A DNA stretch of 64,000 nucleotides from a virus (IMGVR_UViG_2862963355_000001:4660-68659), one strand, 5' to 3'; shown: positions 25,175 to 57,210, numbered from the stretch's first letter. A program made the numbers and translations. Notes: generated by a model not told the origin, from the sequence alone.

Positions 25175-25600
25175 CTAGGACGGCGGGGTGATCTCGTCCA
25201 GTCGCGTCACACGGACAAGTTCGACGGTTGATGCCTCTGCCGGGTCGAGAACCTGCCAGACACGGCCGCCGGTCGCCGCACTGCCCGAATGCGCGACGGT
25301 CACCTCAACTCGGTCGTACCGGGCTGGCACCGGTGCGCCGAGAGGGGTCAACAACCGGTACCAGGACACCGTGTCGTCGAGCCACTGCTTCCCGATGATC
25401 CCCTCGGCGGTGACCTGACCGTGCCCGGACAGCATGGCGCCGGGCCCCTCATAGACCAGGTCGGCGGGCACCTCCCCGAGAAGCCCGGTGTCGGGGTCGA
25501 GCGCCGGCGTACCCGTCGGCCTGGTCACGCGCACCGTGTCCAAAAGGAGCTTGGCTTCCAGCTCCTTGCGAATCTCCTCCGGATCAATGGCGGTGGTCAC
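25175..25600 (-). CDS. DUF6093-like head-closure protein, paralog 2
   Basis: DTVRVTRP...DPDTG...YEGPG...YRLLTPLGAP. Confidence 0.7.
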   Translation of the reverse strand: MTTAIDPEEIRKELEAKLLLDTVRVTRPTGTPALDPDTGLLGEVPADLVYEGPGAMLSGHGQVTAEGIIGKQWLDDTVSWYRLLTPLGAPVPARYDRVEVTVAHSGSAATGGRVWQVLDPAEASTVELVRVTRLDEITPPS

Positions 25601-26034
25601 GCCACCGTTCCCGACTTCTGGGTGTTCTGGTCAACCCACGTCGTCCGAACGACGCTCAGGGTAGAGGTCTCCCCGATGTCGATCACTCGCCATGTCCGAC
25701 CGATGGCCGACTCGTCTTCGGCTTGCACGACGGTCACGGTGTCCTCGCGGGAGGCGACCGGTGCCGACAACGGAGTCAGCAGTCGGTACCGGGACGGGGT
25801 GTCGTCCACGTACGCCTGCCCGGCGAGGTGCAGGACAACGGAGGGCCCGCCAGTGGGGAAGATCGCGCCTGGGCCTTCGTAGATGGTGACGGGCGGACCG
25901 GGCTCGTACTGCCCTGTGTCCGGGTTGAAGATCGGCTCGCCAGGCCGGTAGATACGGATCTTGTCGGTGAGGATCTTCTTCTCAACGATCGCGCTGACGG
26001 CCCCCAGAGTCAGCCCTTCAGTAGGCACGCTCAT
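25597..26034 (-). CDS. DUF6093-like head-closure protein, paralog 1
   Basis: DKIRIYRP...NPDTG...YEGPG...YRLLTPLSAP. Confidence 0.7.
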   Translation of the reverse strand: MSVPTEGLTLGAVSAIVEKKILTDKIRIYRPGEPIFNPDTGQYEPGPPVTIYEGPGAIFPTGGPSVVLHLAGQAYVDDTPSRYRLLTPLSAPVASREDTVTVVQAEDESAIGRTWRVIDIGETSTLSVVRTTWVDQNTQKSGTVA

Positions 26035-26114
26035 GCATTCGAGCGTAGCCGCGCCCGCCGACAGCCCGGAATCTGTGCCCGGGGTGGTGAAGTCGGCCCG
26101 TCCCCACCACGACG

Positions 26115-27230
26115 TCAGGCACTAGCGGAAGGTGCTGCAGCGCACACGCGGGTGATCACAGACTCGCTGGTGTTGAGGGCGGTGAACAGGTCCCCTCGCA
26201 GGTCTTCGGGAATGGCGCCGGAGCCCAAAGCACACCCCTCGACGATTCTCTGAAGACGGTCTGCCTGCTGGGCGGTCATGTACTCGTGGCAACCAGGGTG
26301 AGACAGCACATCGCGAGCTGCGTAGCCGTCGCCTACCGCGACGGTCTCCTCGACGAGATCTGTGGCAATACGGCTGGCAATCCCCGGACCCTGTCCACCA
26401 GCAAGGTCGATGGCGGACAGCCCCAGCCGTGTGAGGAACACCGCCAGGCCAGCACTTCGCTCCAGGGAACGGTAGAGATCCACCAAGTCGTCGAGAGCAG
26501 TGTCGACCGGCAGGTTCGCCGTCCGCCTGCACAGCACCGTAAGAAGTGCTGCAATCGCGCTCTCCCACGCCTCACCAGGAACGGTGCCACTCAGCAGGAC
26601 CTCAGCCCGTTCGATGTCTCCCGCCGTGATGTGGGCTATGACGGCAACCTGGCGGCCGTCAAGCATCCTGCTGCCGATGCCCTTGTGCCGCTGGACCTGG
26701 GCATGTGCCTCCGCCCACATGTCGGCGCTGGCCAGGGCGCGCGTACCGTCGGCCAGCAGTACGGTCCACAGCCATTGATGCAGCTTGCGGCGGTCCTCGT
26801 TCGCCCCGGTGACGCGCTCAAAGGACACCTCGTTCCCGTCGATCGTGACGGCCGTGCCGGACGTCACCGCTCGGTACATCGAGTCGAGAAGAGCAAAGCC
26901 ACCGCCTCCGTCGCCGGAACGGATCAGCAGCCGCGCGAGGTTGACCAGGGGCTCCAGGCTGAACCGGGCGACCTGCGCGCCCAGGGGCTGGGTGCGCAGG
27001 TACGCCACGGCGTGACGCCAGCACAGAGTTCGGGCCAGGTCCGGAACGGCACAGTCGCTGGCGAGCAGGGCCGCCTTGTTGAAGGCGGCAGATGCTGGGG
27101 CCAGCCGGCCGGTGCGCTCGGCCTCCCGTGCAAGGCCGCCGATCTCCTGAACTCGATCAACGAGGGGCGAACAGGCAGGCCGAGGCCGGGCGACCAGCGG
27201 AAAACGCCGCACTATCTGGCTGGCGTCCAT
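26115..27230 (-). CDS. Unknown alpha-helical (TPR-like) protein coupled to the lanthipeptide operon
   Basis: ATG 1 nt after the FxlM stop; RRFPLVARPRP...AFNKAALLASDC...LEPLVNLARL. Confidence 0.7.
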   Translation of the reverse strand: MDASQIVRRFPLVARPRPACSPLVDRVQEIGGLAREAERTGRLAPASAAFNKAALLASDCAVPDLARTLCWRHAVAYLRTQPLGAQVARFSLEPLVNLARLLIRSGDGGGGFALLDSMYRAVTSGTAVTIDGNEVSFERVTGANEDRRKLHQWLWTVLLADGTRALASADMWAEAHAQVQRHKGIGSRMLDGRQVAVIAHITAGDIERAEVLLSGTVPGEAWESAIAALLTVLCRRTANLPVDTALDDLVDLYRSLERSAGLAVFLTRLGLSAIDLAGGQGPGIASRIATDLVEETVAVGDGYAARDVLSHPGCHEYMTAQQADRLQRIVEGCALGSGAIPEDLRGDLFTALNTSESVITRVCAAAPSASA

Positions 27231-27231
27231 C

Positions 27232-29352
27232 TCACTGCCACTCGATGACGATCCGGTTGAGGGCATTGTCGAACGCGAATCGTCCCGGCGCCGAGGCCGG
27301 CGGTGCACCATCGAGATTCTGGACTTCGAAGGCCACGTTGCGCTCGCGGAAACCGCGATTCCATACGCCCATCTCTTCGGCCACCCGATCGGCGAGCTCC
27401 TTGCCTGCCGGACCGTGGCCGATGGCTCCCGCCTCGTACAACTGCCCGCCGTCCTCGGCAAGACCAGCCTTCCGCAGCGTGAGGTAGGCGAAGCTGCTTT
27501 GTTCCGCCACCGCCATGGGCCGGAACCCGTCGGCCAGGTTGCTGGCCCCGGCGCCGTTACGATCGACTTCCATCCGGCTGAGGGCGTTGTCCAGGCTGCA
27601 CGACAGCCAGAGCCACATGTACTCCGGCGACTCAGACCCCCGGAACGTCACGCCCGACCACGCTTCGGTTCCCGGCTGGTCGAGCACGCCGCGCAGCGCC
27701 TCGTCCGCCTTCTGCTCCTGGTTGAACTGGAGCTTGACTGCGCCGTCGTCGGTCAGTGCGACAAGGCGCCGCGGGTCATCAGCTACCCCTGCCCGCAGCG
27801 GCATGAACGTGCACATCGCACTGCGGACGCTACGCCAGCGGCCATCTGCGTCCCGCTCGAAGGCGACAGCACGCGAGACGCTGCCCCGCAGCCGGAGAGG
27901 CACGACGAGGCGGCCGTCGGGCGCGAGCTGGTCGAGCCAGGCCGACGGGATCCCGTGAGCACCAACGGTCGCGACGATCCGGTCGTAGGGAGCGCCCTCC
28001 AGGTGGCCGACCGCGCCGTCTCCGAGGATTACGGTCACGACGTCGGCGAATCCGGCTTCTTCGACGGCCGCTTGGGCGTTGTCCACGAGGTCCTGGTCCA
28101 CGTCGATCGTGTATACGTGCCCCTCTTCACCGACCAGACGTCCCATGGTCGAGGCGAACAGGCCGCTGCCGGCACCGCCTTCCAGGATCCTCATGCCCGG
28201 CTTTGCTTCGGTGAGTTCCAGCATGAGGGCGTTGACCGACGGCTGGGAGACGGCGCTGATGGACGCACCGGAGCTGTCGAACTTGGTGTGGACCGGGGTG
28301 TCGGCGTACGCCTCTTCGAGGGTGGCGCCAGGCTTCGACTGGCGTACGAACACGTGTCGAGGTACTGCCCGAAGAGCGGCTTCGATGTCGTCGCTGTGCA
28401 CGCGTCCATCGGCCTTGAGCTGGTCGACCAGCTTGTTGCGGAGGTTCTCGGCAGCGGTGTTGTCGTTGATCGTGTCGGTATCCACGCCGGTGAGGCTAGT
28501 GGCATCAGCGGCCGTGCCTGATGCAGACGCGGCGGATTCGCTCGTTCCCATGACTACCTCTTTCGCCAGGTTTGACAAGGTGCTTTGGTCCTCACTGCTG
28601 AGGCCCAATCGGTTCCAGTGGAAGATCAGGTGGTGGGCGAGTACCGCTCGAAATCCGCGTTCCAGCCGTCCAAGGCGGTGGAGGCGAGCGAGCCGCTGCC
28701 CTGCCCACTCGAACGTGGCAAGCCAGTCGGCCAGTCCCGTCAACGAGCCTCCGTCGACGAGCCTGCTGGTGGCGCTGACATCGACGGTCATGAGCTGTCG
28801 CACAGCCTTCGCGGCCCGGTCGGACACGGGCGCGACCGCCGTGCCTTGTCGCTCAGCGGCCACCCTCGCCCATACGTCGCCCTGCTCGAAACGATCCAGG
28901 CCCGCGGAGCGCATGAGAACGCTGAACAGCAAGATCGCCAGCTCGCGCCGTCCCAGGCCCGGCGCCTCGGGGACTTCCCGCACAGCGGCGGCGAATTCGA
29001 GGATGTGGCGACTGTCGTGGTGAAACAGCTCGTGGGCCAGCTTCATCCCGGCGGCGCCACCGAATGCCACCGCCTCCGGCTCGTAGATCCCCACCGTCCA
29101 CTCGCTGACTAAGCCCTCGGCCCGCAGGCGTTCCAAGAGGCTGTCCAGGCGTGTGGAAGCCCGATCGTCAGTGGGCTCATACCGGATCCGCCAGCACGGG
29201 AATTTGCGCAGGAACGACCACTGCACGATCTCGCCCTCCGCTGCACCGACCTCAAGCTCGGGCAGAAGGTGTTCGGCGGCGAGCTGTTCAGAGTCCGGCC
29301 AGGTGGCGAACTGGACGAGGCGCTGCGGCCACTCGTCAGGTGCCATATTCAC
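27232..29352 (-). CDS. fxlM: FxlM-type O-methyltransferase (PIMT/PCMT-like) fused to an N-terminal SpaB_C/thiopeptide-type elimination domain
   Basis: N-terminal WSFLRKFPCWRIRY...IYEPEAVAFGG...HHLIFHWNRLG; C-terminal VPRHVF...ILEGGAGSG...YDRIVATVG...GRLVVP. Confidence 0.88.
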   Translation of the reverse strand: MNMAPDEWPQRLVQFATWPDSEQLAAEHLLPELEVGAAEGEIVQWSFLRKFPCWRIRYEPTDDRASTRLDSLLERLRAEGLVSEWTVGIYEPEAVAFGGAAGMKLAHELFHHDSRHILEFAAAVREVPEAPGLGRRELAILLFSVLMRSAGLDRFEQGDVWARVAAERQGTAVAPVSDRAAKAVRQLMTVDVSATSRLVDGGSLTGLADWLATFEWAGQRLARLHRLGRLERGFRAVLAHHLIFHWNRLGLSSEDQSTLSNLAKEVVMGTSESAASASGTAADATSLTGVDTDTINDNTAAENLRNKLVDQLKADGRVHSDDIEAALRAVPRHVFVRQSKPGATLEEAYADTPVHTKFDSSGASISAVSQPSVNALMLELTEAKPGMRILEGGAGSGLFASTMGRLVGEEGHVYTIDVDQDLVDNAQAAVEEAGFADVVTVILGDGAVGHLEGAPYDRIVATVGAHGIPSAWLDQLAPDGRLVVPLRLRGSVSRAVAFERDADGRWRSVRSAMCTFMPLRAGVADDPRRLVALTDDGAVKLQFNQEQKADEALRGVLDQPGTEAWSGVTFRGSESPEYMWLWLSCSLDNALSRMEVDRNGAGASNLADGFRPMAVAEQSSFAYLTLRKAGLAEDGGQLYEAGAIGHGPAGKELADRVAEEMGVWNRGFRERNVAFEVQNLDGAPPASAPGRFAFDNALNRIVIEWQ

Positions 29353-29373
29353 TGTTGCCTCTCTTCGTACGGG

Positions 29374-30645
29374 TCAGTTGATCAAGAAGCATGTGTCCCA
29401 GCCGGATATGGGGGGCGTGCCTGTCTGCGTCGCGTGCAGAGCGAGAGCCACGCCGGCTGCGCCTTCGAGCAGTCCGATGTCGCCGGGCCCGTTCGGCGGC
29501 CGAAGAAGCGATGTGGCCAGAGCAACTGGCTCGACGTGTGTGATGGGAGCGAGCAGGCGAGGCAGCTGCTCGGCGAGGACGGGCTTGATCGCGTCCGCCG
29601 CCATGCTCCGCGTGATGTGCGCCAGCCCCGCAAATCCGTGACAGATGGAGTGATCTCCGGTCGCTTGCAGCTGTTCCGGATCTGTCATCGCGTGTGCCAT
29701 GGCGCTCTCGGCCATCTGTTGCCGCTCTGTGTCGCCCGTCGCGATTCCAGCGAGTTGCAAAGCTCGGGCGATGCCCGCTGTTCCGTAGCACCAGCTCGGG
29801 CGTGAGGGGCCGTTGCCGGCATCGCCGTAGCGAAGCTGCTCTCGGGTGATCCAGTAGGGCCACCAGGGTCCGGCCGGTCCGTCCTGACGCCATCGATCCA
29901 GCCATGCGCAGATCCGGCTGATTGCCTCGGCCTGTCCGTCGACAGTGACACCGCGCCGTGCGGCAATCGACAGAAGAGCCAGTGGGCCACCGATGCCGTG
30001 TGCTACCCCCGTGTTGGCGTGGCCTTGAGGGAATTCCGGTGACGGCTTGCCGGAGGGGGCCAGGTCGCACCACCAACCGGGTACGAGCTCGCCGGAGCTT
30101 TCGATCGGTTCGGTGAGCCGGACCAGGTAGGAAAGGACAGCTCGGGTCAGGTCGACTTGGCCCTCGCGCCTGAGCAGAAGAGCACCGAGGCCGCTCAGGC
30201 CGCGGATGGTGTCGAACTCCGCCAGCGCGGGCAGCTGCCCACGGTCCATTCGGAGATGTGCACGCTCCAGCCGGTGACGCGTCATGTTCTCGATGTGCCG
30301 GTCGAGGGTGTCCAGGGCGCGGGCATACCGCTCGGGCCGGTCTGCCGCCGCGGCGTTCAGAGCGAAGGCGAGCGCGGGGGCGCCGTAGTAGAGGTGACCG
30401 TCCACGCCGCCGACGGCTGGGGCTTCAGCGGCGCAGGTGAGCCAGTCGTGAGCGAGCTTCCACGACGCGATGCCGGAGCGGGCCCGCTCGACGTGTAAGA
30501 GAGCGACGCCTGCGGCGCCGTACGCCAGAGACTGCGGAAACCAGCCCTGTGTGAGTTCAAGCCCGCGCACATCGGCCGGTGAAGCCAAGCGATCGGCGAT
30601 GGCGTCGGCTGCTGCCTGCACCCTGAGGTCTGACGTCTCGCTCAT
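29374..30645 (-). CDS. lanC: Lanthionine synthetase LanC (cyclase)
   Basis: GVAHGIGG, SWCYG and SICHG Zn-ligand motifs, GLLEGAAG. Confidence 0.95.
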   Translation of the reverse strand: MSETSDLRVQAAADAIADRLASPADVRGLELTQGWFPQSLAYGAAGVALLHVERARSGIASWKLAHDWLTCAAEAPAVGGVDGHLYYGAPALAFALNAAAADRPERYARALDTLDRHIENMTRHRLERAHLRMDRGQLPALAEFDTIRGLSGLGALLLRREGQVDLTRAVLSYLVRLTEPIESSGELVPGWWCDLAPSGKPSPEFPQGHANTGVAHGIGGPLALLSIAARRGVTVDGQAEAISRICAWLDRWRQDGPAGPWWPYWITREQLRYGDAGNGPSRPSWCYGTAGIARALQLAGIATGDTERQQMAESAMAHAMTDPEQLQATGDHSICHGFAGLAHITRSMAADAIKPVLAEQLPRLLAPITHVEPVALATSLLRPPNGPGDIGLLEGAAGVALALHATQTGTPPISGWDTCFLIN

Positions 30646-33600
30646 GAATGCCGCGCTTTCCAGGCGAGCGCAGCGGCCCGAGCCAGCCTCAGGCAGGTGC
30701 GCTCGTCGTCTTTGTCGATGCCGGCGGCTCGGATGTGGTGGCCATGGAGGAGCGAATCAAGGATGGTGTCGGGGTTCACGTCCTCGGCCTGGCGCAATAG
30801 CTCCCGATACTGGCCCAGGGCACGGTCGCGGGCTGCCCACTGGGCGTACATCGTCTCTCCACCGGGGGCTGCACGGAGCCCGGCCCAGTTGTCCGAGGGA
30901 TCAGCCAGCCGTACCGCCTCTGCGAGCACGTGTCGATCCAGCGGTTCGGAAGCGTGAATCTTGCCGTACCTGATCATCCAGTCCATGCCCTCGCGCGAGC
31001 CGCCGGAGAAGGCCACCGCAATGGCTATGAGGTTGCTGGCTGCGAGGACCTGCGGGTGGGGGCCGCCTGGTAGGGCGAACTGTTGGGCAAGGCAGCGTGA
31101 GTCGGCGGCGAAGACGGCCTCGACGGCTTGCATGGCTGCCCCGCGTCCCCACCTTCCGGTCTCGGGGTAGGAGGTGGCGAATTGCAGGTCGCTGAGCAAG
31201 CCGTCCTCACGAAGACCATCCGCCCACCTGCTGATCCACGCGGCGGCCTGACCGAAGGCTGCGGGGTCAGGAAGAGCAACCCTCAGGCGAATGTGCGGGC
31301 GCGGGTCGCGGTACCGCATGTACCACCATGCTGGCGGCTGGTCCCATTGCGCGAGGAGCTGCGGGAGGTAGTGGCCCAGGATCTCTGGCTGCCGCTCGTT
31401 GTGCCCGTACAGCTTGGCCATAAGCCATTCGGATCCGCCGGGCAGGCGCCCGTGGCCACGTCCAATGAGGCGGGAAGCGGAGACAGCTGGTGCGGCGGGC
31501 CACTGCGGGGGAACGGCTGCCGTCATCGGAACGGTGATCTCGTGGGCATGGCCACTGAACCAGGTGCTGGTGCCCTGGGGGGCTTCGGCGAGCACCGCGC
31601 GCTCGGAAACGTCCAGGTGCGAGCGCAGGAGTTCGAGGTGTGCGCTGTGCCCGAGGTCCAAGTGCAGAAGTCGGTCGCCCTCGGTCAGGTAGACCGACTT
31701 CGGGAGCCGGCGTTGCTCTGCCCACCTTTGCAGCTCCTCGCGCCACTCTTTCCACGGAGCAGCGCGGCTGGGCAGTTCGGAGCGCGTCAGTCGCCACCTG
31801 GCCGGCGAGAGGACCGTTCGGCCGTAGCGCAGGCGCGGAAGGAACGGGAGCCGATCAGCAATTCCCCACGTGAAGCCGGTGACGACGGCGGCCTGCGCTT
31901 TGCCGATCTCGCTGAGGAACCGGGCCAAGGGCGGGGTGTGTGTTCGCAGGTCGAGAGCGTGTAGTGCGTAGGCGTCCACTCGGGCCTTTCGGGATACCGA
32001 AGCCAGGTAGAGGCGACGTCGGTCGCAGCCCACTGCGAGATCGCTCAGCGGAATCACGCTCGGGCCGGCTGGTCGGTGTTCCGCCACGCTGATGATCTCG
32101 GGGGCCAATGCGGGCGCGCGGGTTACGTGGGCGTCGCTCGGGTCGAGCGGTGCAAAGGAGAGCTGGGCCAGCCGCGTACCGGGATCGGTCGTCGGCAGTT
32201 GCGCGATTTCACGGGCTGCTCGGGCTCGATCAGATTCGTCCAGCAAACCGATGAAGCGACCGGACAGGGTACCGACGCCGCGGGAGGCACTGATGACAGA
32301 GAGCGTGAAGTCGCCGCTGTCGAGTGCGTGGACCGACTCGGCGTGAAGTTGGAACCGCAGCTCGAAGTGAGGAGGGATCTGCAGCCTCTTTCGGTCCCCA
32401 AGCTGTAGCTCGGTGATCGTTTGCTCATCGAGCTGGACCTCGTCGCGACCGTCGAGCGCGGCGCTTTGGGCCAGGGCAAGAAGCTGGTGGTCGCGCGTGC
32501 TCGCCAGCCCTTCCGGCTCGGGCTCTCCATCGAGGTATCCAGCGGGGAACCCAAGACCGATGTCGGGGTCAACGACGTCCCGGAGCGGGACGAGGGAGCC
32601 GATGCCGTACCGCTCAAAGAATCTGTTGTGGTATTCCTTCCACGCCGCAGTGCCGAACGGCCAGGCAGTCAGCTGCGCCAATGCCGTCGCTGCCGATTCG
32701 GCTTCACGGCGAACCTCCCGCGGGAGGGTGAGTGAGCAGTCCACGCGCAGGTCCACCGCCAGGGGCTGAGAGGCGACGGCGCTCACGTCCGTCATCAGGC
32801 CCCGCAGCTCGGCGCGCAGACACCGGCTGGCGGGACCGGTGCCTACCTGGCTGTGCTCGTTCATGCGACGGCGAACAGAGCGGAGACGACCAACGATCTC
32901 ACTGGCCTCAGGCACGTCTTCGATACGGGCCGCTTCCACCTGATCCATGAGGTGAGCGAAGGCGTCGAACGTGGTCGACGGCGCATGGAGGCTGGTGATC
33001 AGGGCTCCGTGTTCCACCAAGGTCTCGATGAGGGGAGCAATCTTGCCTGCTGCCTTGGGGAACTCGGCGGCCACCTTCTCCACCAGCTCGTCGTAGCGGA
33101 CCGGCGCTCGGGCAGCTTCGACCGCTACCCGGACTGGTGCGGTGTACCTCAGGCGCGCCTCGGCCACGGCACCACCTTCCACGGGGCGACGCCGGGGCGG
33201 GTATGGAACGACCAGCCGGTTGCCCCGTAAGAACACCGCTGCATTTGCCATGAGCGGTAGCCGACACAGCACCTCCGGCACGGCTTCCAGCTGGCCGATG
33301 ACGTCACTGAGCCAGGCGGAATCAGCACGGGCAAGGGCACGGTGCCGTTCGCCCCAACGAACCGCGGTCTCGGCGCCGAATTCGGCCGGCGCCACACCAG
33401 CGAACAGTCCGAAAGGTGTGGCCCGACTCGTCATCCGCATCACGTATCGGATCACGGACAGAACCGTTCGGCGCACCTGCCGTACGTCCAGGCGCGCGTC
33501 GGAGCACACCGCTCCCACCTGCTGTGCAAGGTCCGGGCTCGCCAGCTCGATCGCTTCGGCAACCGCGGACAACGCCCAGACTTCTGCCAGCCATTCGCGC

Positions 33601-33734
33601 CACCGCTGCACCTGTCCGGGCGAATCGTCAGCCATGTCCGGCCAGGCTGGCAGGTCCAGTTCGGACCAACAGGCGGCTCGTACGAGCACCGACTGACCAC
33701 ACCGATACAGCTGTCGGCTACGTCTCGAAGCCAT
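30642..33734 (-). CDS. lanB: Class I lanthipeptide dehydratase LanB (full length)
   Basis: 1030 aa; RATPFGLFAG, KLYG, WWYMRYRDPRPHIRLR, SYPETGRWG. Confidence 0.95.
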   Translation of the reverse strand: MASRRSRQLYRCGQSVLVRAACWSELDLPAWPDMADDSPGQVQRWREWLAEVWALSAVAEAIELASPDLAQQVGAVCSDARLDVRQVRRTVLSVIRYVMRMTSRATPFGLFAGVAPAEFGAETAVRWGERHRALARADSAWLSDVIGQLEAVPEVLCRLPLMANAAVFLRGNRLVVPYPPRRRPVEGGAVAEARLRYTAPVRVAVEAARAPVRYDELVEKVAAEFPKAAGKIAPLIETLVEHGALITSLHAPSTTFDAFAHLMDQVEAARIEDVPEASEIVGRLRSVRRRMNEHSQVGTGPASRCLRAELRGLMTDVSAVASQPLAVDLRVDCSLTLPREVRREAESAATALAQLTAWPFGTAAWKEYHNRFFERYGIGSLVPLRDVVDPDIGLGFPAGYLDGEPEPEGLASTRDHQLLALAQSAALDGRDEVQLDEQTITELQLGDRKRLQIPPHFELRFQLHAESVHALDSGDFTLSVISASRGVGTLSGRFIGLLDESDRARAAREIAQLPTTDPGTRLAQLSFAPLDPSDAHVTRAPALAPEIISVAEHRPAGPSVIPLSDLAVGCDRRRLYLASVSRKARVDAYALHALDLRTHTPPLARFLSEIGKAQAAVVTGFTWGIADRLPFLPRLRYGRTVLSPARWRLTRSELPSRAAPWKEWREELQRWAEQRRLPKSVYLTEGDRLLHLDLGHSAHLELLRSHLDVSERAVLAEAPQGTSTWFSGHAHEITVPMTAAVPPQWPAAPAVSASRLIGRGHGRLPGGSEWLMAKLYGHNERQPEILGHYLPQLLAQWDQPPAWWYMRYRDPRPHIRLRVALPDPAAFGQAAAWISRWADGLREDGLLSDLQFATSYPETGRWGRGAAMQAVEAVFAADSRCLAQQFALPGGPHPQVLAASNLIAIAVAFSGGSREGMDWMIRYGKIHASEPLDRHVLAEAVRLADPSDNWAGLRAAPGGETMYAQWAARDRALGQYRELLRQAEDVNPDTILDSLLHGHHIRAAGIDKDDERTCLRLARAAALAWKARHS

Positions 33735-33825
33735 GTGCTCCCTCCCTCGTAAGCCCTTCAGCCAGGTGCCGGTTCGGGCAGCGGCGTACCACTGCCCGAA
33801 CCGGCATGGACTAGCGCCCCTGTGG

Positions 33826-33972
33826 TCAGGCCACCTTGGTGGCGCACGCGCTGGGGCACGAGCTGCCGCAGCCGTCGTCCGTCAGCACGATCAGCCGACC
33901 GTCATCGACGCCGGACTCCAGAACGCTGACGTCCAGGTCGAACTCGTCCTTCATCTCCACTTTCATCTCCAC
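33826..33972 (-). CDS. lanA: FxLD-family lanthipeptide precursor 2 (48 aa)
   Basis: GGAGG RBS; MEMKVEMKDEFDLDVSVLESGVDDGRLIVLTDDGCGSSCPSACATKVA; not in the ORF track. Confidence 0.92.
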   Translation of the reverse strand: MEMKVEMKDEFDLDVSVLESGVDDGRLIVLTDDGCGSSCPSACATKVA

Positions 33973-34089
33973 GGGGTTTCCTCCAAGGGTTGAGGCCGAT
34001 CCGAAGGTTCGGCTCGGTGAGCCGGTTCCGCCGTCGCCGACGGCGCCCAGAACACGTTGGCGTCGGTCCTGGGAGTTCGAGGTGTTGCG

Positions 34090-34263
34090 TCAGGCAGCGT
34101 TGCTGACACACGAGGTGCCGCAAGTGCTCCCACAACCACCGTCGGAGGCCGCGAGTTCGATGGTGGTCTTACCGGCGTCCAAGACGGTGATGTCCAGATC
34201 GAACGGGTCCTGAGCGACGGCGCCGGTGGACTCCGGCTGCCCTTCCAGCGTGCTGAGCATCAT
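34090..34263 (-). CDS. lanA: FxLD-family lanthipeptide precursor 1 (57 aa)
   Basis: GGAGG RBS; MMLSTLEGQPESTGAVAQDPFDLDITVLDAGKTTIELAASDGGCGSTCGTSCVSNAA; not in the ORF track. Confidence 0.92.
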   Translation of the reverse strand: MMLSTLEGQPESTGAVAQDPFDLDITVLDAGKTTIELAASDGGCGSTCGTSCVSNAA

Positions 34264-34470
34264 GGTGATACCTCCGTTGACTGGTCGAGACGATCTTGCG
34301 GTGTTGCAGATAGCCGGTCAGGCCCTGGAGCGTAGTGAGATAGCCACACGGCCCAGGCAGTTCCGGCCACCGGTCCGAGGTGCCATGCACCACGTGCTGG
34401 AGCGTGCGGGGCCGCTTCCCCCGGACCGGGGTTCAGGTATGCCGCCGACGCTCACCGCGGCGGCCGTCGT

Positions 34471-35391
34471 TCATGCCACAGCCAATTCGAGCTGGTGGTT
34501 GAGCACGTCCGAGAGGATGTCGGCGTCGAGCGTGAGGCGGACAACGTGGTGATCCGAGTCCGCCTCCGGGACCTCGATCACGTCAACGCCGACCACAGTT
34601 CCAAGCAGGTCGCTCGTGGCGTAGATGCGGTCGATGCGTGAGTCCGGACCGTGGGTCTCGCAACCGTTGACCGTGCGAGAAAGCGCCTTCGCGCTCCCAT
34701 CCCGCGTGTTCGCCCAATGGCGCGCGACATCCTCCAGCCCCGCCGTGCGCAGCGCCTCGTCCGGGCGGGTGTCCATGACGCGCCTGCCGCCGGGCCCAAC
34801 GAAGGACCGGTGCAAGCGGTGCGGCCGGTCGGCTATGGCCTTCAGTTCCGGCAGGGCGACGTCTCCCTCTACACCCGGTGAGGGGTACGAGTTGTTGTCC
34901 CCAGCGAGGAGAGCTGGCATCCGCACGGTCTCGCCGTCGGCCGTCGTCCACGTCTTGTCGGCCCAGACCGTGAGCCATTCGGCCTCGGCGAGCCGGGTGG
35001 TCGGGGAGGCGTAGTTCAGGTGGTACGAGGCCACCGCGATCGGCATGGATCGACTGCCCGCCGGCGTGAACCGCAAAGTCATGGCTGTCGGAGGCAGCAC
35101 CCACATCGGGCCGGTCTGCGGCCACTCTCTCAGCGGCTGGAACTTGCGGGGGTCGGCGAACACCGCAGTGCACGCCCGCGGGCCCAGCCAGCCGCGCAGG
35201 CCGAGGACATCCTCCAGCTCGTACATGATCTCGTTGCCGTTGGTGTCCGCTCCCCACATCTCCTGCCGGAGGACGAGGTGCGGATTGAGGGATGCAAGCA
35301 ACTCGTGCGCCCGGAGCCTCTTCGCTGCAATGCCCGCACCATTGCGCTCGAAGTTCCAGGACAGGACGGTAATTTGGGACTTCCGGTTCAT
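34471..35391 (-). CDS. Endonuclease/exonuclease/phosphatase (EEP) family protein B
   Basis: SWNFE, RQE, YHL, GDNNS, RIDRIY, SDH motifs. Confidence 0.88.
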   Translation of the reverse strand: MNRKSQITVLSWNFERNGAGIAAKRLRAHELLASLNPHLVLRQEMWGADTNGNEIMYELEDVLGLRGWLGPRACTAVFADPRKFQPLREWPQTGPMWVLPPTAMTLRFTPAGSRSMPIAVASYHLNYASPTTRLAEAEWLTVWADKTWTTADGETVRMPALLAGDNNSYPSPGVEGDVALPELKAIADRPHRLHRSFVGPGGRRVMDTRPDEALRTAGLEDVARHWANTRDGSAKALSRTVNGCETHGPDSRIDRIYATSDLLGTVVGVDVIEVPEADSDHHVVRLTLDADILSDVLNHQLELAVA

Positions 35392-35409
35392 TGGTGGTCG
35401 CCTCCCGAG

Positions 35410-36336
35410 TTAGGCAGCCGTGGCGGCGCTGGGTGCCAGTGCGCGGCGCACACCGGAGAGGCTGAAGGTGGCCACGACAGGACAGTGATCGGACGCTTCA
35501 CGGATCTCGTCGTTGACGATGACCTCCAGGCTCGTCAGGGCCTGGGCGACCTGCGGCGTGGCGTAGATCCGGTCGATGCGCTGCATCTCGCCTTGGTCCC
35601 TGCGCCACAGGGACGCGGTCGGAGAGAGCGCGCCGGGCTGGCGCAGCCGCGTTGCGGCGTACTGCCCCAACTCGACGAACACCGGAGGTCGGCCGTGGTG
35701 TGTACCGGCGAGGATGTGATCCGGGCGCGTGTCGGAAACGCGCTGCCCATCCCGGTCGACCGTGCGGTGCTCGAAGTGACTGCGATCCTCCACCTCGTCC
35801 CAGTCCGGGAGGAAGGCCGCCTCATCCTCACTGTGCGGATAGGAGTTGCAGTCGCCACCGATGATCGCCGCCATCCCGGGCTTGCCCAGGGTGGTCAACC
35901 GCCGCGCCTCGTTGACTCGCCGGTCGGGGTCGAAGGAGCAGAGGTGGAACGACGCGAGACTCAGCTTTGTCTGGGCACCCTTCAGCCGCACGACAGGGTT
36001 GCAGATGGGATGCCACATGCCGGTCGCGTGCTCGTAGAACTCGGTCGGCTCGCACAGGCCCGGATCGGTGTAGACGCCAGTCGCGTTCGCGGACTCCGGT
36101 GTGGCGCTGGCGAGGAACGCGGCGTGGCCTCCCAGACGAGCGGCCTCAGCCCACACCGCGCGCCTGCCGTACATGTCCGCGCGGGTCAGCTCCTGGCGCA
36201 GCAGCACATGGGGGTTGAGAGCAGCAAGGACCTCCATGGCGAGATGCCAGCGTTCGTCCGAGCCATCACGGCCGGTGCCGTTGTGCTCGACATTCCACGA
36301 GACCACGCGGAAGGCATCGTCATCGGACTTACTCAA
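35410..36336 (-). CDS. Endonuclease/exonuclease/phosphatase (EEP) family protein A
   Basis: SWNVE, RQE, FHL, GDCNS, RIDRIY, SDH motifs. Confidence 0.88.
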   Translation of the reverse strand: MSKSDDDAFRVVSWNVEHNGTGRDGSDERWHLAMEVLAALNPHVLLRQELTRADMYGRRAVWAEAARLGGHAAFLASATPESANATGVYTDPGLCEPTEFYEHATGMWHPICNPVVRLKGAQTKLSLASFHLCSFDPDRRVNEARRLTTLGKPGMAAIIGGDCNSYPHSEDEAAFLPDWDEVEDRSHFEHRTVDRDGQRVSDTRPDHILAGTHHGRPPVFVELGQYAATRLRQPGALSPTASLWRRDQGEMQRIDRIYATPQVAQALTSLEVIVNDEIREASDHCPVVATFSLSGVRRALAPSAATAA

Positions 36337-36396
36337 GGAGTCCCCCTCAAGGTGGATTGATGAAGGCGGTCAGCAAGCAAGGCGGAGGAAGCGAGG

Positions 36397-37083
36397 TCAA
36401 GAGCGAGCAGCCGCGACCTCCCGTTCGAGATCGACGACAGTGACACCGCGCAGCTCGCGTACGAGTTGAGACGCCAGGAACCACGGCCTGAGCAGACGCT
36501 CCTTGTACGACAAGGGCCGATCCGCTTCCTCGTCGCTGACCTTCACGGGCACGGGCCGCATGTCGGGGCCGGTGGTGTAGAGAGTGCCGACCACTCCGTA
36601 CAGACGCGGTACGCGCACCCGAATCACCACAGCCCCGGCCCTCACCAAGTGGCCACACTGCTCGACCGCAACCACAGCGCAATCAAGGCAGAGAGGCGGC
36701 TGCCAGGTAAGGGCGCCCTCTGGCCAATCCGACTTCACGGAATCATCTGGCCTCGTTGCCAGGAACAGGTAGCCGCTGGCGGTCCGGCTGGCCGGCTGGA
36801 CGACGCACACCTGGCACCGGAGCCCCTGCATCGCCTCCCGCTGCCGAGACGGATGGACCTCCCGCCATCGCGGAGAGCCGACGGGCCAGCCGTCCTCGCG
36901 ATTCTGGGAGCACCGGGCCCAGAGGACCCCTTGATCGTCCCGATCCCTGGGGCCCTCGTCCAGGTAACAGAGCCCTCCGCCACCGGGGCGAAGGCCGAGC
37001 ATCGCGGCCGAGTCCGGATCCTCGCCCCGCCGAGCGGTGACGTAGGGGACGACGGAAGACCACGGCATCAGAGGAGTAGTCAT
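36397..37083 (-). CDS. Hypothetical Cys-motif (CQVC...CLDC...C) protein
   Basis: 228-aa ORF coupled to the DUF5999-like gene. Confidence 0.7.
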   Translation of the reverse strand: MTTPLMPWSSVVPYVTARRGEDPDSAAMLGLRPGGGGLCYLDEGPRDRDDQGVLWARCSQNREDGWPVGSPRWREVHPSRQREAMQGLRCQVCVVQPASRTASGYLFLATRPDDSVKSDWPEGALTWQPPLCLDCAVVAVEQCGHLVRAGAVVIRVRVPRLYGVVGTLYTTGPDMRPVPVKVSDEEADRPLSYKERLLRPWFLASQLVRELRGVTVVDLEREVAAARS

Positions 37084-37330
37084 GCCGCAGCCCGCGCATC
37101 GATCGAGAGCGAACGATGCGGCTGGATGATCCGGCCGTCCGGCAGCAGCTCACCGGTGTCCTCGAAGAGCAGGACACCGTTACACAGCAGGCTCCAGCCC
37201 TGCTCAGGGTGGCAGGCCACGGGATGTGCTGCCTCCCGGTCAGTGGCCTCCGCGGCGGGGCAGGCGGGGCGGTGCTGACAACGTGGGTACGCGTCCGGCT
37301 TACGGAATGCCGGTGGCGTGGCGCGTTTTG
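37080..37330 (-). CDS. DUF5999-like small Cys/His protein; start uncertain
   Basis: CQHRPACP...HPEQGWSLLCNGVLLFEDTGELLPDG. Confidence 0.7.
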
Positions 37331-37617
37331 AGCTGGCTCGCACGGCAAGTTGGCCTTTCATCGCTGGGCTGACAGCACTGGGCGTGGCTACCGGCCGCCG
37401 CTCTCCGCGTAAGGAGCGGCGGCCGGGGCCCGGCTCCCTGCGCCGACGGGGACGGCGTACCCACCAGGGAGCGGGCCGCTTCCTCCGCTCTGACCATCCC
37501 GGGACCAGGCCGTGCCCGTGTCGGCGAGCGCAGCGGTCGCTACGGGAGGCGGAGGAAGCCATCTGCGGTCATCTCGGCGCGGGGACAGCGATCCGGCCGC
37601 GCGGAGATGACCTGTTC

Positions 37618-37821
37618 TTAGGGGCCGAGGTGAACGACGTACTGGTAGGTGAGCCAGCCGACGACACCGATGGTGAAGGAACCGATCACGGCGGCCTGGC
37701 CGAGGCCGAATCCAGTGCTGCCGATCGCCTTGTCGTGGTTACGAAGGAGCGTCTGGTAGGGGTGCCTGATCGCCCAGCGCAGGCGCGGCAATCGGCGTTT
37801 CCTTCGGTGCGCGGCACTCAT
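37618..37821 (-). CDS. Small membrane protein
   Basis: MSAAHRRKRRL... basic N-terminus with a C-terminal TM segment. Confidence 0.45.
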   Translation of the reverse strand: MSAAHRRKRRLPRLRWAIRHPYQTLLRNHDKAIGSTGFGLGQAAVIGSFTIGVVGWLTYQYVVHLGP

Positions 37822-37894
37822 GATCGCCTCCCCCACTTCGAGCCGAAGAGTGCGAGGAGTCCGAACACGGCCACAACGCCTAAGCCGATGGACG

Positions 37895-38110
37895 TCACGA
37901 CACTCGCTCCTCGCTGGTGAGGACGCGGTGCAGGCGGCGCCAGGTCCGGGGAGCGTCCGGGACGTGGAAGAAGTCGGGTGCGCGCTCCTCCAGCTCGTGT
38001 CGCGCGTCGAGCTGTTCCATCGCCTGCTGAGGCGTACGGACCGGCAAGGGTACGTACGCGGTGTCCGGCTGAATGATCCGGGACGTGGTATCGCGGCGTC
38101 CCTCAAGCAT
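37895..38110 (-). CDS. Small hypothetical protein
   Basis: GGAGG RBS; first gene divergent from the XRE regulator. Confidence 0.5.
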   Translation of the reverse strand: MLEGRRDTTSRIIQPDTAYVPLPVRTPQQAMEQLDARHELEERAPDFFHVPDAPRTWRRLHRVLTSEERVS

Positions 38111-38488
38111 GGGTTGCCTCCACGGTGTTGGTTTGATGTGCCGGCTGCCAGTCGCATGGCACGTGGGTGAGGAATCGGAGCCGGAGCGCAGCCGCGCTCA
38201 TCGGACAGGGACGGATCTTCTTCTCCGCCACCCACGCGAACCGCACTGCACGGCGCGCTCCGGCCGCCGGCGCGGGCTCGCCTCCCCCAGGAGATCGCCC
38301 CCCGCCGACACAACTACGTTGGCGCTTATGCGGGTTCATCGGCAACCGAATCTGCGGTGAATATTCAACTGAAGACACATTGGTATATGCCGAGATCCGC
38401 ACAAGGGGCTGCGGGGCCCGCACACGGGATGCCACACTCTGCGCACACCAGCAGGTGATCCGCACAGCGGTATGGGGAGGGCGCACAA

Positions 38489-39385
38489 GTGGCAGCGAAG
38501 CGTGGGGCAACCGGACGACGTCTGGAACTCGGGCTCCAGCTCCGGCAGATGCGGGAAAGCATCGTCATGAAGACCGGCAAGCCGATGACGCGCAAGGCCG
38601 CCGTCACCGGCACAAAGCTCTCCGAGGCCGCGCTACAGCGCATCGAGACAGGCGCCCTGAACTTCCGGAACGTCGGTGACCTACGCAAGTTGCTGGACAA
38701 GTACGGCGTCACGGACGAGGAGGTCATCGAGACCCTTGTCGAACTGAACCGCGACTCGTCGAACCAGGACTGGGTGACCCGCTACCGCAGAGTCATGCAG
38801 GCCGGTATGCCGACCTTCGTGGGAGTCGAGTCGGAGGCGCGGGAGATCCGCGTGTACCAACCGACGGCAGTCCATGGCCTGTTGCAGACCGAGGGTTATG
38901 CTCAGGCCATATTCGACATCGGGAAGCCGGTCGAGGAGACCACCACGGAGTTCTGCCGCCAGAACGTCGCACTTCGCATGGAGCGCAAGGAGAGGGTCCT
39001 ACGGCGAGAGCCCGATCCGGTCAAGCTGTGGGTGATCCTGGGTGAGGCGGCGCTGCGCCACATCGTTGGGGACGTAGAGGTGATGCGTGAGCAGTACGAA
39101 GAGATCACGAAGCTGGCTGCACTCGATCATGTAGCGATTCAAGTGCTCCCCCTCGCCGGCCGGGGCTACCGCGCATCCCACGACTTCGCCATCCTCGACC
39201 TTGGCGATGGTCTGCCACCGATGGTGCAGATCGACACCGCCTGGGGTGCCGTCTCGACCTCCGACAAGCCACGCGAGGTCGATAGGTTCAAGCGCCGATT
39301 CGACACGATGATGTCCTCGGCGCTCCCGCCAGAGGACACCGCCGAGTTCATGCAACGACTAGACCGAGAGTTGAAGAGCCATTAA
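38489..39385 (+). CDS. XRE-family HTH regulator with a DUF5753 domain (Scr1/WhiJ-like)
   Basis: RRLELGLQLRQMRE...LQRIETG; VHGLLQTEGYA; WVILGEAALR. Confidence 0.9.
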   Translation: MAAKRGATGRRLELGLQLRQMRESIVMKTGKPMTRKAAVTGTKLSEAALQRIETGALNFRNVGDLRKLLDKYGVTDEEVIETLVELNRDSSNQDWVTRYRRVMQAGMPTFVGVESEAREIRVYQPTAVHGLLQTEGYAQAIFDIGKPVEETTTEFCRQNVALRMERKERVLRREPDPVKLWVILGEAALRHIVGDVEVMREQYEEITKLAALDHVAIQVLPLAGRGYRASHDFAILDLGDGLPPMVQIDTAWGAVSTSDKPREVDRFKRRFDTMMSSALPPEDTAEFMQRLDRELKSH

Positions 39386-39392
39386 CACTCAC

Positions 39393-39611
39393 ATGCACCA
39401 CCCCACGGCCCCTGAACTGGCGCCCGAGAGCGCCTGGTACAAGTCGTCGTACAGCAGCGGCGACACGGGCAACTGCATCGAGATTGTCAACCTGAGCAGT
39501 CAGATCGGCATCCGCGACTCCAAAGACACGAGCGGACCGGCGCTCGTCGTGTCGACTGCCGCGTGGTCGTCGTTCGTAGACCTCGTGCGTTCAGGTGATG
39601 TCGACCTGTAG
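39393..39611 (+). CDS. DUF397 domain protein (Scr2-like partner)
   Basis: WYKSSYS...GNCIEI...IRDSKD...GPAL...AWSSF. Confidence 0.92.
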   Translation: MHHPTAPELAPESAWYKSSYSSGDTGNCIEIVNLSSQIGIRDSKDTSGPALVVSTAAWSSFVDLVRSGDVDL

Positions 39612-39620
39612 TCATGGCAC

Positions 39621-39659
39621 GGAGTGGTCCTCCCCAGGGGATTTGGGGAGGACCACTCC
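39621..39659. terminator. Bidirectional terminator hairpin between DUF397 and the minor capsid gene
   Basis: GGAGTGGTCCTCCCCA-GGGGATT-TGGGGAGGACCACTCC. Confidence 0.8.
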
Positions 39660-39697
39660 GCGTCTGCGCTTCACCTGACGTACGGGTCCGACAATCG

Positions 39698-40570
39698 TCA
39701 GGTCGCAGGTGGAGCGTACGCATGTTCTGACCTCTTGTCCCCATCGCTGCGCTGCCGCGGTAGCTGGACATCCGGCCTGGGGCCGAAGGCCCGTCGACAG
39801 CGGGGATGCGAGATGGGCCACTCTGCTGCGTCCTCGACGGCGCGGAGCGTTCCGGCCGCCTTATCCGCGTCCTGGTGAGAAGTCCACCCGCAGTCGGAGC
39901 CGTCGAAGACCTCAACGAAGCTGACACCGGCCTGACGAGACCTGTTGAGGGTGCCCGCGTTATAGGCGACGGCCGACTTCGCGAGCGTGGCGGCCTCGGC
40001 CCATGCCCGCACCGGGACGCGGGCTCCGTTGCGGTAGATGACGTGCGTCAGCTTGTGCTTCGCGGCGAGCCGGTTCGCGAGGTTCTTCGCGGCCCGCTTC
40101 GCGGTCATGTTGCCCGCTGCCAGCAGTGGCACTTCGCGGCGAGCAGCCTGCCGCACTGCCCGGTAGAACTGGCTGGCCATCCGTTCGGCTTCCTCGGAGC
40201 GGCGCAGGAAGTCGGCGTAGGAGTCTGCTGCGAGCGACTGCAGTGCGTCACGGTGGAACGTGGTCCAGGTGAAGGTCACGCCCAGGGCCTCGGCAGCCGT
40301 CCGCCCGCCCTCTTCGTACAGATGAGGGAGCTGCCGCTGTACGAACTGCCGGGCCTCTTGATCCACGCGCTGCCGGAAGTCCCTGATCGCCTGCTTGAAC
40401 TCCTCCAGAGTCGCCAGGGTGTAGGGAGTACGCGGATTGTCCGCGAACTTGGCGATCACCTCCCGCTGTTTGGCCTCCAGGCGCTGCCAGGCGTCCTCGA
40501 GTACGGCTGCGACGCGGCGCGCGATCTCATCGGGGTCGCCGGGTATCAGTGGCGGCCACTCGTACGGCAT
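39698..40570 (-). CDS. Phage minor capsid protein (MuF-like)
   Basis: VEVFDGSDCGW...PISHPRCRR C-terminal motif. Confidence 0.75.
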   Translation of the reverse strand: MPYEWPPLIPGDPDEIARRVAAVLEDAWQRLEAKQREVIAKFADNPRTPYTLATLEEFKQAIRDFRQRVDQEARQFVQRQLPHLYEEGGRTAAEALGVTFTWTTFHRDALQSLAADSYADFLRRSEEAERMASQFYRAVRQAARREVPLLAAGNMTAKRAAKNLANRLAAKHKLTHVIYRNGARVPVRAWAEAATLAKSAVAYNAGTLNRSRQAGVSFVEVFDGSDCGWTSHQDADKAAGTLRAVEDAAEWPISHPRCRRAFGPRPDVQLPRQRSDGDKRSEHAYAPPAT

Positions 40571-40577
40571 AGCCGCT

Positions 40578-40904
40578 CTACCTTGTACGCCGAGACGGCA
40601 GGAGCGGCGCGGTGACCAGGTCGGCGCTGGCCTCTCCTGCCGCCGGATCATCCGGGGCGACGAGTTCAGTGAGGCCCGTGATCTGGCGCTCCAGTCCGGC
40701 AAGGTTGTTGCTCTGATCGATAGTGACCACGCCGTCAACGGTCATGCGCAGCGGTTCAGCGAGCAGCTTGGCACGGCGTTCGGCAAGAACCTCTGCGGCG
40801 ACCGCGCGGGCTCGTCCGAGTCGGGCGTAGCGGGCGGCGAGGTCTTGTTCGTCCGTGGCGGTGCCGAGCTGCGCCCGGAGCCAGGCGAGGAGGATCGGGT
40901 CCAT
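40578..40904 (-). CDS. Putative head-tail adaptor
   Basis: Small helical protein after the capsid genes. Confidence 0.5.
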   Translation of the reverse strand: MDPILLAWLRAQLGTATDEQDLAARYARLGRARAVAAEVLAERRAKLLAEPLRMTVDGVVTIDQSNNLAGLERQITGLTELVAPDDPAAGEASADLVTAPLLPSRRTR

Positions 40905-43596: not shown

Positions 43597-43736
43597 GCGT
43601 GAACCATCCACAGGTCTCCAGCGCCCCCACGCCGATGATCAGTCTAGCGATCTGCTGGACGGGGCTGCTTCCTGATGCACTCGGCAGCGCACGTCGGGCG
43701 AAGCCCGTGATACCGGGCTCGAGCGGATGGTTCCCA

Positions 43737-44711: not shown

Positions 44712-44762
44712 GCACTCGATTATCCGATGCGCAGCCACCGTCAGGCTCAGAGTTCCCTCAAC

Positions 44763-51753: not shown

Positions 51754-52266
51754 TCAGATCAGCGACATCTGCTCACCCTCTTCGGGCTTCTGGGGGCGTA
51801 CATACTCAGGCGGCGCGTCGGGCGCATCGCGCTCGGTGCGCAGCCACCAAGCGAACTGGTAGTTGCGGCAGGTGCGAAAGCGGACCGAGTTCCGACGCGG
51901 CTCTTCCGCAGGAATGCTGTGCTCGCCCCATCCAGTGATGGGGCGAGCATTACCGAGGCGCACGTGCAGACCCGGCACAAGGGCGGGCCCCTCCCACTCT
52001 TCTCCGGGTGCGCCTTCGAATGCCAGGTGGGCGTTCTGGCTCCAGTTCCAGGGGTTGGGCAGCGCGCACAGGTACCAGGCCAGCGGCGGGTTGTTCGGCG
52101 GGAGTTCAACGGTCTGGTGCCGGCGACGGACATCCACTCGGGGACGCTCGGGCTGGCCGAAGCTGCGCAGGCAGTGCTGGTCGAGAGCTACGTGCCGCAC
52201 GCCGGCCAGCCACATGATGTGGTACCGACTTCGCGATTCAATTTGGACCTGTATTCGCTGCAACAC
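51754..52266 (-). CDS. Unknown Trp/His/Cys-rich protein in the ParB-methyltransferase cassette
   Basis: 170-aa ORF starting 19 nt after the ParB-MTase stop. Confidence 0.65.
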   Translation of the reverse strand: MLQRIQVQIESRSRYHIMWLAGVRHVALDQHCLRSFGQPERPRVDVRRRHQTVELPPNNPPLAWYLCALPNPWNWSQNAHLAFEGAPGEEWEGPALVPGLHVRLGNARPITGWGEHSIPAEEPRRNSVRFRTCRNYQFAWWLRTERDAPDAPPEYVRPQKPEEGEQMSLI

Positions 52267-52284
52267 GCGCTCCCCACACTCTTC

Positions 52285-57195: not shown

Positions 57196-57210
57196 GGTTG
57201 GGTCTCCTGA

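Follow-up and report, generated by a model that had tools for sequence, protein, structure and literature searches.

Do the genes of a lanthipeptide cluster that has no exporter, carried by a prophage among its morphogenesis genes and preceded by two genes for EEP-fold proteins, act as one defence machine, or do separate modules lie side by side? This question is raised by a 64,000-nucleotide stretch of viral DNA (IMGVR_UViG_2862963355_000001:4660-68659), the whole of which is called the window throughout; it is high-GC Streptomyces DNA (genome G000, contig C17). Positions 26115-36336 hold, on the minus strand, eight co-oriented and tightly spaced genes running from EEP-A to LanH, as seen from open reading frame (ORF) listing, codon-position GC content and searches with Pfam and NCBIfam. 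With PHROGs added, these analyses place the eight-gene run between the head and the neck/tail genes and bear out a preliminary description of this DNA, which had put it between the minor capsid gene and the head-closure genes. We consider it likely that the block consists of two separable cargo modules, a lanthivirin cluster and an EEP cassette, in a hypervariable defence slot of the prophage. The eight genes are:

35410-36336, minus strand: EEP-A, 308 aa; PF03372, 25.4 bits (cut-off 24.5), E=1.4e-5
34471-35391, minus strand: EEP-B, 306 aa, paralog of EEP-A; PF03372, 22.5 bits (just under the cut-off of 24.5)
34090-34263, minus strand: lanA1, 57-aa FxLD precursor; TIGR04363, 38.9 bits (cut-off 30)
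33826-33972, minus strand: lanA2, 48-aa FxLD precursor; TIGR04363, 50.2 bits (cut-off 30)
30642-33734, minus strand: LanB; Lant_dehydr_N PF04738, E=1e-218, and Lant_dehydr_C PF14028, E=2e-40
29374-30645, minus strand: LanC, lanthionine cyclase; LANC_like PF05147, E=2e-49
27232-29352, minus strand: LanS_A (LphDE/CoiS_A type), 706 aa; PF14028 and PF01135; TIGR04364, 420 bits (cut-off 320)
26115-27230, minus strand: LanH/CoiH/LvnF homolog, 371 aa; assigned by homolog family and conserved residues

The lan genes as a lanthivirin cluster

Lanthivirins, first named 'lanthiphages' (Shomar et al., bioRxiv 10.1101/2024.06.26.600839; see also Chen, Zhu and van der Donk, bioRxiv 10.64898/2026.08.26.747419), make up a family of over 2000 class I lanthipeptide clusters from actinobacteria. 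Its marks are LanB, LanC, PF14028 and PF01135 domains that are frequently fused, the TPR-like hypothetical protein LphF and the core motif TxDxCxxxCxxxC; a T-D-D/N-G-C A-ring has also been described. The clusters are enriched in defence islands, prophages and plasmids, have few transporters nearby (an ABC transporter is near 18% of the loci) and protect against phages in native and heterologous hosts. The preliminary description had pointed to such an anti-phage family; it is real, and the lan genes of the window belong to it.

Indeed, the published marks are present in the window: LanB, a full-length class I dehydratase with glutamylation and glutamate-elimination domains; LanC, which overlaps LanB by 4 nt; the fused LphD/LphE domains of LanS_A, in which a second SpaB_C (glutamyl-lyase) domain is joined to an isoaspartyl-type O-methyltransferase (TIGR04364 stands for 'methyltransferase, FxLD system'); and FxLD precursors that pass TIGR04363. 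The core of LanA2, T-D-D-G-C-G-S-S-C-P-S-A-C, is an exact fit to the family motif, and LanA1, the start codon of which is preceded by GGAGG 8 nt upstream, has an FDLD leader and a variant core, S-D-G-G-C...C...C. Since LanB, LanC, the PF14028/PF01135 fusion, LanH and the core motif are found together and a transporter is missing, the lan genes at 26115-34263 are, as judged from sequence, a complete coi/lyd-type lanthivirin cluster. Like the window, the coi cluster of S. coelicolor comprises LanB, LanC, the SpaB_C/PCMT fusion (LphDE/CoiS_A) and LanH (LphF/LvnF/CoiH), and lanthivirins including coi share with it two FxLD precursors with a TxDxCxxxCxxxC core, the lack of an exporter, an actinobacterial host and frequent residence on prophages. 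Unlike the published lanthivirins, the cluster of the window lies within the morphogenesis operon of a prophage that appears intact, with two EEP genes in front. From its accessory genes, which are said to be rare outside the LanC 'defensive clade' (lanthivirin preprint), we infer that the LanC of the window falls into this published clade.

The gene at 26115-27230 had been described as encoding a helical protein that may form one functional unit with the peptides and the two nucleases. This view has to be given up: by its family and conserved residues, the product is the tailoring enzyme LanH/CoiH/LvnF and not a receptor, effector or immunity protein. The LanH family comprises at least 1445 actinobacterial homologs of ~370 aa, and D59, N97 and R100 of the window protein are invariant in 24 diverse homologs. 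Recent work on lanthivirins showed that LanH/CoiH/LvnF forms a sulfoxide from the first methyllanthionine and reported Asp59, Asn97 and Arg100 of CoiH as essential; the window residues match these by residue number (a comparison of numbering, not an alignment with CoiH itself). The assignment thus follows from the published sulfoxide chemistry of the family and the retention of D59, N97 and R100.

Three alternative gene calls were rejected. An antisense ORF at 26286-27248 (+) was taken as a shadow ORF of LanH; codon-position GC content did not separate the two, and LanH was chosen because it has a homolog family. A second antisense ORF at 35020-36360 (+) was regarded as a high-GC shadow ORF of the EEP genes. 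An extended, 448-aa start of LanH was discarded as well, as the ATG at 27230 fits the homolog length and lies 1 nt past the LanS_A stop.

The full cargo region is wider than the eight genes and spans 26115-39611 (13.6 kb); it additionally holds phrog_30088, a DUF5999 gene, small ORFs and a divergent XRE/DUF397 pair. Pfam and NCBIfam searches found no ABC transporter, protease or LanI/LanFEG immunity domain in any ORF of this region, so that the lack of an ABC/LanT transporter, protease and immunity gene noted earlier for the block holds across the whole cargo. Scanning 25900-39800 for promoter and terminator consensus sequences gave nothing that exceeds the shuffled background. A GC-rich hairpin past the EEP-B stop folds no better than its shuffles (z=0.19), and no terminator is claimed there.

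By analogy with tested family members, we propose the following course for the first module (26115-34263). LanB and LanC would dehydrate and cyclise both FxLD precursors, LanS_A would add a second glutamyl-lyase activity and Asp O-methylation, the functions described for the domains of CoiS_A, and LanH would oxidise the first methyllanthionine to the sulfoxide. The modified peptides would then stay inside the cell, block the transcription programme of superinfecting phages and in this way protect the lysogen. For the tested lanthivirins, spent medium was inactive, no toxicity was seen, adsorption was unaffected and late transcription of the phage was altered, which points to intracellular action; five published systems are active with the lan genes alone. 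The intracellular action suggested in the preliminary description fits this published behaviour of the exporter-less family.

Presence and absence of the EEP pair next to lan genes

The closest relative of the cluster lies in S. lydicus (locus L099). It is orthologous in all lan genes (LanA1 96%, LanA2 98%, LanB 96%, LanC 96%, LanS_A 93% and LanH 82% identical) and has the same upstream genes as the window (XRE, DUF5999 and phrog_30088). Aligning the two loci leaves a clean gap of 1,925 bp, flanked by sequence of 84% and 94.7% identity, which corresponds exactly to EEP-A and EEP-B (34471-36395); its two ends are marked by the TGA stop codons of phrog_30088 and EEP-B. Unlike the window, the S. 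lydicus locus lacks both EEP genes, and where phage neck/tail genes would follow downstream it has insertion sequence and regulator genes. LydA1, LydA2 and LydH, tested by Chen et al., probably come from this locus. Because a 96%-identical cluster lacks precisely these 1,925 bp, the EEP pair is not an obligatory part of the lan unit.

Other relatives show the same independence from either side (gene calls in these loci come from a simple heuristic based on GC content at third codon positions, GC3, so that small genes may be missed or mis-started). None of the 12 sister prophages that carry lan genes has an EEP gene, and phrog_30088 abuts lanA there; in related prophages, DUF5999 and phrog_30088 are in fact the conserved neighbours directly 5' of either lanA or the EEP pair. 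Only about 10% of the LanH loci in 401 Streptomyces species genomes have an EEP gene, and EEP remnants lie beside intact lan genes in genomes G105 and G039. Conversely, EEP pairs 65-83% identical to that of the window precede cassettes other than lan, and many EEP loci have no obvious biosynthetic neighbour. On a maximum-likelihood tree of the EEP proteins, explaining the label 'lan-adjacent' of 10 rows takes 10 changes, the label clusters no more than shuffled ones do, and the nearest tree relative of each lan-adjacent EEP is not lan-adjacent.

The second module (34471-36395) would accordingly be read as a mobile two-gene EEP cassette with intact catalytic residues, gained or lost exactly between the phrog_30088 stop codon and the lanA1 promoter region. 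Making the peptides would not require it; most likely it would act alone or reinforce the lan system as an optional extra, and the phosphoester on which it acts may be a nucleic-acid end.

EEP genes of this kind were also seen in a number of other settings. In S. djakartensis (L034, 5998-12437; also L068), genes for a TauD-like dioxygenase, a 735-aa UDP-glucose/GDP-mannose dehydrogenase fusion and a further protein of 444-461 aa without assignment come after the EEP pair; the cassette is also found at L096 (9989-17882; also L073), here with a 'GT4 in conflict systems' glycosyltransferase in addition. It occupies the same prophage slot as the cargo of the window. In L095 (10001-14727, from IMG/VR) and L100 (10001-15353, S. 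inhibens CP084681), an EEP-A 82-83% identical to that of the window precedes a radical-SAM enzyme, which in L100 is followed by a thymidylate kinase, a sulfatase-like phosphodiesterase and a NUDIX protein. The radical-SAM enzymes match prokaryotic viperin (pVip) models weakly and in the N-terminal half only; a nucleotide-analogue defence cassette is possible.

A second S. lydicus strain (L102, 9045-20927) carries DUF5999, phrog_30088, EEP-A and EEP-B in front of a lanthivirin cluster in which PCMT and SpaB_C are encoded by two genes; past this cluster lies a pair of UvrD-helicase and AAA_15/AAA_21 genes that resembles Gabija. In L031 (13197-13961; G244 C1), EEP-A is truncated to 254 aa, and its first ~47 codons match a fragment ~5.2 kb away (G244:C1:1407675-1407803); the gene appears to be split by an insertion carrying two large ORFs. 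Conservon-like sets (a sensor-kinase-like gene and three small genes) lie a few kb from EEP genes in L042 (13583-18663) and L044 (43-4736), in L042 also near a lanthivirin cluster, an arrangement reminiscent of the S. coelicolor cluster, for which control by Cvn8 has been published. XRE homologs adjoin EEP genes in L040, L043 and L048, and the XRE/DUF397 pair is a probable local cargo regulator.

Fold and family of the EEP proteins

EEP-A and EEP-B are ~32% identical to each other, and EEP-B belongs to a distinct 'B-type' clade whose members are found beside another EEP gene. Every canonical EEP catalytic residue is present in both paralogs (in EEP-A: N15, E49, H131, D162, N164, D255, D283 and H284). 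An AlphaFold2 model of EEP-A (pLDDT 92) has the four-layer alpha/beta sandwich of the EEP fold; the protein is a predicted cytoplasmic, Mg-dependent phosphoesterase. The model matches mannosyl-6-phosphatase, AP endonucleases, nocturnin, Tdp2, ExoIII and CNOT6L, all with Z-scores of 22.4-25.5, at a root-mean-square deviation of 2.7-3.0 Å over ~230-240 residues and with 12-22% identity. Nucleases, an NADPH phosphatase and a sugar phosphatase thus score alike on this fold (Z 22.4-25.5), and sequence-profile matches to ExoIII and Tdp2 are marginal (E ~2e-4). Since the generic EEP fold does not discriminate between substrates, the label 'nuclease' used in the preliminary description is plausible but unproven.

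EEP-A shares the Asn/Glu/His/Asp-x-Asn/Asp/Asp-His constellation with Tdp2, ExoIII/AP endonucleases, nocturnin, CNOT6L and the mannosyl-6-phosphatase Bt3783; unlike these solved structures, its family has a conserved insert at ~165-250 (D184, H187, R191, G197 and R199). The family comprises ~106 clusters at 90% identity, carries generic annotation and is nearly confined to Streptomyces: a class-level search of ~287 non-Streptomyces Actinomycetes gave four weak matches. In PADLOC-DB v2 (2023, which predates the lanthivirins), EEP-A, EEP-B, phrog_30088, DUF5999, XRE and LanH have no match at E<=0.01.

The prophage and its cargo slot

The borders of the slot and the remaining cargo genes of the window are:

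39698-40738, minus strand: minor head protein (phrog_37388, phrog_4611), the last conserved head gene and left border of the slot
38489-39611, plus strand: XRE (HTH_31+DUF5753) and DUF397 pair, divergent from the cargo operon
36397-37562, minus strand: phrog_30088 (228 aa) and the DUF5999 protein, two genes upstream of EEP-A
25175-26034, minus strand: two DUF6093/phrog_13779 genes, the first conserved genes past the slot

By PHROGs and Pfam, the block is flanked upstream by genes for TerS/TerL, portal, scaffold, decoration, major head and minor head proteins, and downstream by the two DUF6093 genes and those for tail completion, major tail, tape measure and Dit; calling DUF6093 a 'head-closure' gene is an inference from position. 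The element further encodes replication and methylase genes, ParB-like genes, a serine-recombinase-like gene and a tyrosine integrase (window 62273-64000+). A perfect direct repeat of 47 bp lies just outside the window, at C17 306239-306285 and 378066-378112 (window -7702 and 64125-64171), the right copy being inside a tRNA-Met gene beside the integrase; the two copies are likely the attL and attR sites of a 71.9-kb prophage. Terminase, portal, major capsid, tail and integrase genes together with the repeats argue for an integrated tailed prophage, and the element is an apparently intact, temperate siphovirus-type Streptomyces prophage. The same element, from a near-identical strain, is present in IMG/VR as a viral contig of 68 kb, with the gene order kept and 97-99% identity.

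In INPHARED, neither a megablast search with the 11.6-kb block nor a tblastn search with LanB found a Streptomyces phage record with the block; the LanB search returned only distant LanB-like genes in Staphylococcus and Streptococcus phage records. By capsid, the closest isolated phage is ZL12 (46% identity), in whose annotation the head-to-tail interval has no comparable cargo block.

Scanning species-representative genomes with the minor head protein yielded 42 related prophage loci, the head proteins of which are mostly 85-98% identical to those of the window, while the sequence past the minor head gene is hypervariable. For 34 of the loci, 8 kb or more of sequence past the minor head gene could be inspected, and 12 of these carry lanthivirin genes. 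The LanB proteins in the slot of these sister prophages are only 36-48% identical to that of the window and come in at least two architectures; set against the 85-98% identity of the head proteins, this indicates that different lanthivirin clades have been exchanged at one position. Two other prophages have a type I restriction-modification system in the slot (L072, 11161-17588, and L059; HsdM with 778 bits to the PADLOC model MTase_I, and HsdR), and two have a Ser/Thr kinase matching the PADLOC models PD-T4-6 and mad6 (L074, 7071-8519, and L076). Further occupants are WhiJ-type sets (XRE, DUF397, HATPase_c_2), pairs of TrmO_N and TPR genes, an amino-acid permease and biosynthetic-looking cassettes.

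As lanthivirins, type I restriction-modification systems and kinases interchange in the slot, it can be regarded as a defence/cargo hotspot inside the morphogenesis operon. This company supports a superinfection-exclusion role of the cargo; the corresponding suggestion of the preliminary description fits a slot in which related prophages hold type I restriction-modification systems and PD-T4-6-like kinases. The P2 and P4 prophages of E. coli are known as defence hotspots, and this lineage resembles them in having a fixed slot between conserved phage genes with interchangeable defence cargo. It differs from them in the position of the slot, between the head and the neck/tail genes of a siphovirus-type Streptomyces prophage, and in its wealth of biosynthetic cassettes and WhiJ-type regulators.

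Weighing the explanations

Several observations weigh against a division into two modules or against the function assigned to them. Of the 401 genomes, 59 have EEP-A relatives, 88 have LanH and 23 have both; in nine genomes the two lie within ~12 kb on one contig, and in two further genomes LanH-less lanthivirin clusters adjoin EEPs, giving a total of about 11 of the 59 EEP-bearing genomes. Chance would be expected to produce EEP-LanH proximity ~0.1 times, a rough figure (23 genomes, a 24-kb target, ~9 Mb) that overstates significance in so far as related genomes are non-independent. The co-occurrence of EEP genes with FxLD clusters elsewhere, on which the preliminary description had staked its proposal, was indeed found; the adjacency is far above chance and, as a matter of gene neighbourhood, argues for some functional tie rather than mere co-travel. 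Among the inspected loci, the EEP gene is co-directional with and directly 5' of lanA in the window, L031/L102, L033, L042, L048 and L050, and in L046 it lies within the operon, between LanC and the SpaB_C gene, which it overlaps by 4 nt. Moreover, the anti-phage function of this locus is ascribed to it by analogy, through its membership of the family. The main text of the preprints by Shomar et al. and Chen et al. mentions no EEP or phosphatase accessory, though the final published version may list one; in the paper on S. coelicolor cvn8, the genes that separate cvn8 from the lan cluster go unnamed.

The adjacency would suit an EEP pair that quite generally serves chemical-defence cassettes (lanthivirin, viperin-like radical SAM, sugar-nucleotide) as a facultative partner, either destroying phage nucleic acid stalled by the small molecule or cleaning blocked host ends as self-protection. 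Biosynthetic cassettes of at least three kinds do have the same EEP lineage at their 5' edge, namely lanthivirins of three architectures (window, L033 and L031/L102), the radical SAM/thymidylate kinase/NUDIX type (L095, L100) and the TauD/UDPGDH/GT4 type (L034, L096), with consistent position and strand, an embedded gene in the L046 operon and catalytic residues kept in both paralogs. However, most lanthivirin loci, including the closest ortholog, do without EEPs (~10% of LanH loci have one), EEP remnants decay beside intact lan genes, many EEP genes have no biosynthetic neighbour, the fold is silent on substrate and the pVip match is weak and confined to the N-terminal half. We therefore regard a general partnership as possible but rather unlikely. 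It is a similarly tentative thought that the pair might be a Streptomyces-restricted, portable companion of transcription-targeting chemical defences, with prophages swapping two-part defences in the slot of the morphogenesis operon. The repeated, position-specific adjacency of EEP and lan genes nevertheless leaves room for an optional functional synergy.

The preliminary description had gone further and joined the peptides, both EEP 'nucleases' and the helical protein into one obligatory intracellular defence machine. Co-orientation, tight spacing and the recurrent EEP-lan adjacency speak for this, but the helical protein is accounted for as the tailoring enzyme LanH, the EEP pair is exactly absent from the 96%-identical S. 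lydicus cluster, 12 sister prophages have lan genes without EEPs and the five published systems protect with lan genes alone; the idea of one functional unit is thereby weakened, and an obligatory machine seems to us very improbable. More improbable still is that the peptides are secreted antibacterial or morphogenetic lanthipeptides that aid the lysogen in competition, with a transporter encoded elsewhere providing export. Secretion is usual among the characterised class I lanthipeptides, the 18% of lanthivirin loci near an ABC transporter would allow for it and L046 has an ABC ATPase gene past LanH; yet the 13.6-kb cargo has no transporter, leader protease or immunity gene, and tested family members show inactive spent medium, no toxicity and no effect on adsorption. 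Two separable modules in one slot thus remain the reading we favour.

Lanthivirins are a recently recognised chemical anti-phage defence. The location of class I clusters on prophages was already reported: a 2023 survey noted class I lanthipeptide clusters in Streptomyces prophages. As prophage-borne, exporter-less lanthipeptide defence is thus in the literature, the advance is incremental, and the locus is a member of a known lanthivirin system with a modestly novel EEP accessory lead. Its value lies in part in the near-identical clusters of the window and S. lydicus, with and without a clean 1.9-kb EEP cassette, which form a natural pair for testing the contribution of the EEPs. The genus-restricted EEP family, which tracks several biosynthetic defence-like cassettes, is a candidate accessory or stand-alone defence gene. 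The widespread Streptomyces prophage lineage, about one third of whose members have some lanthivirin clade in the structural-operon slot, lends itself to work on prophage-mediated chemical immunity and on the question of how a prophage escapes its own lanthivirin cargo.

Further features of the prophage

Outside the cargo slot, an inverted ORF of 301 aa without significant Pfam match lies between the terminase and portal genes (window 46832-47737, plus strand), and between the scaffold and portal genes there is a stretch of 1.15 kb (43611-44763) in which the GC3 heuristic calls no gene; the structural operon probably has more moron slots. Window 51754-59011, upstream of the terminase genes, encodes three ParB_N proteins, one of them fused to a methyltransferase, and further methyltransferases. 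A C5 cytosine methylase gene is found at window 3046-4677.

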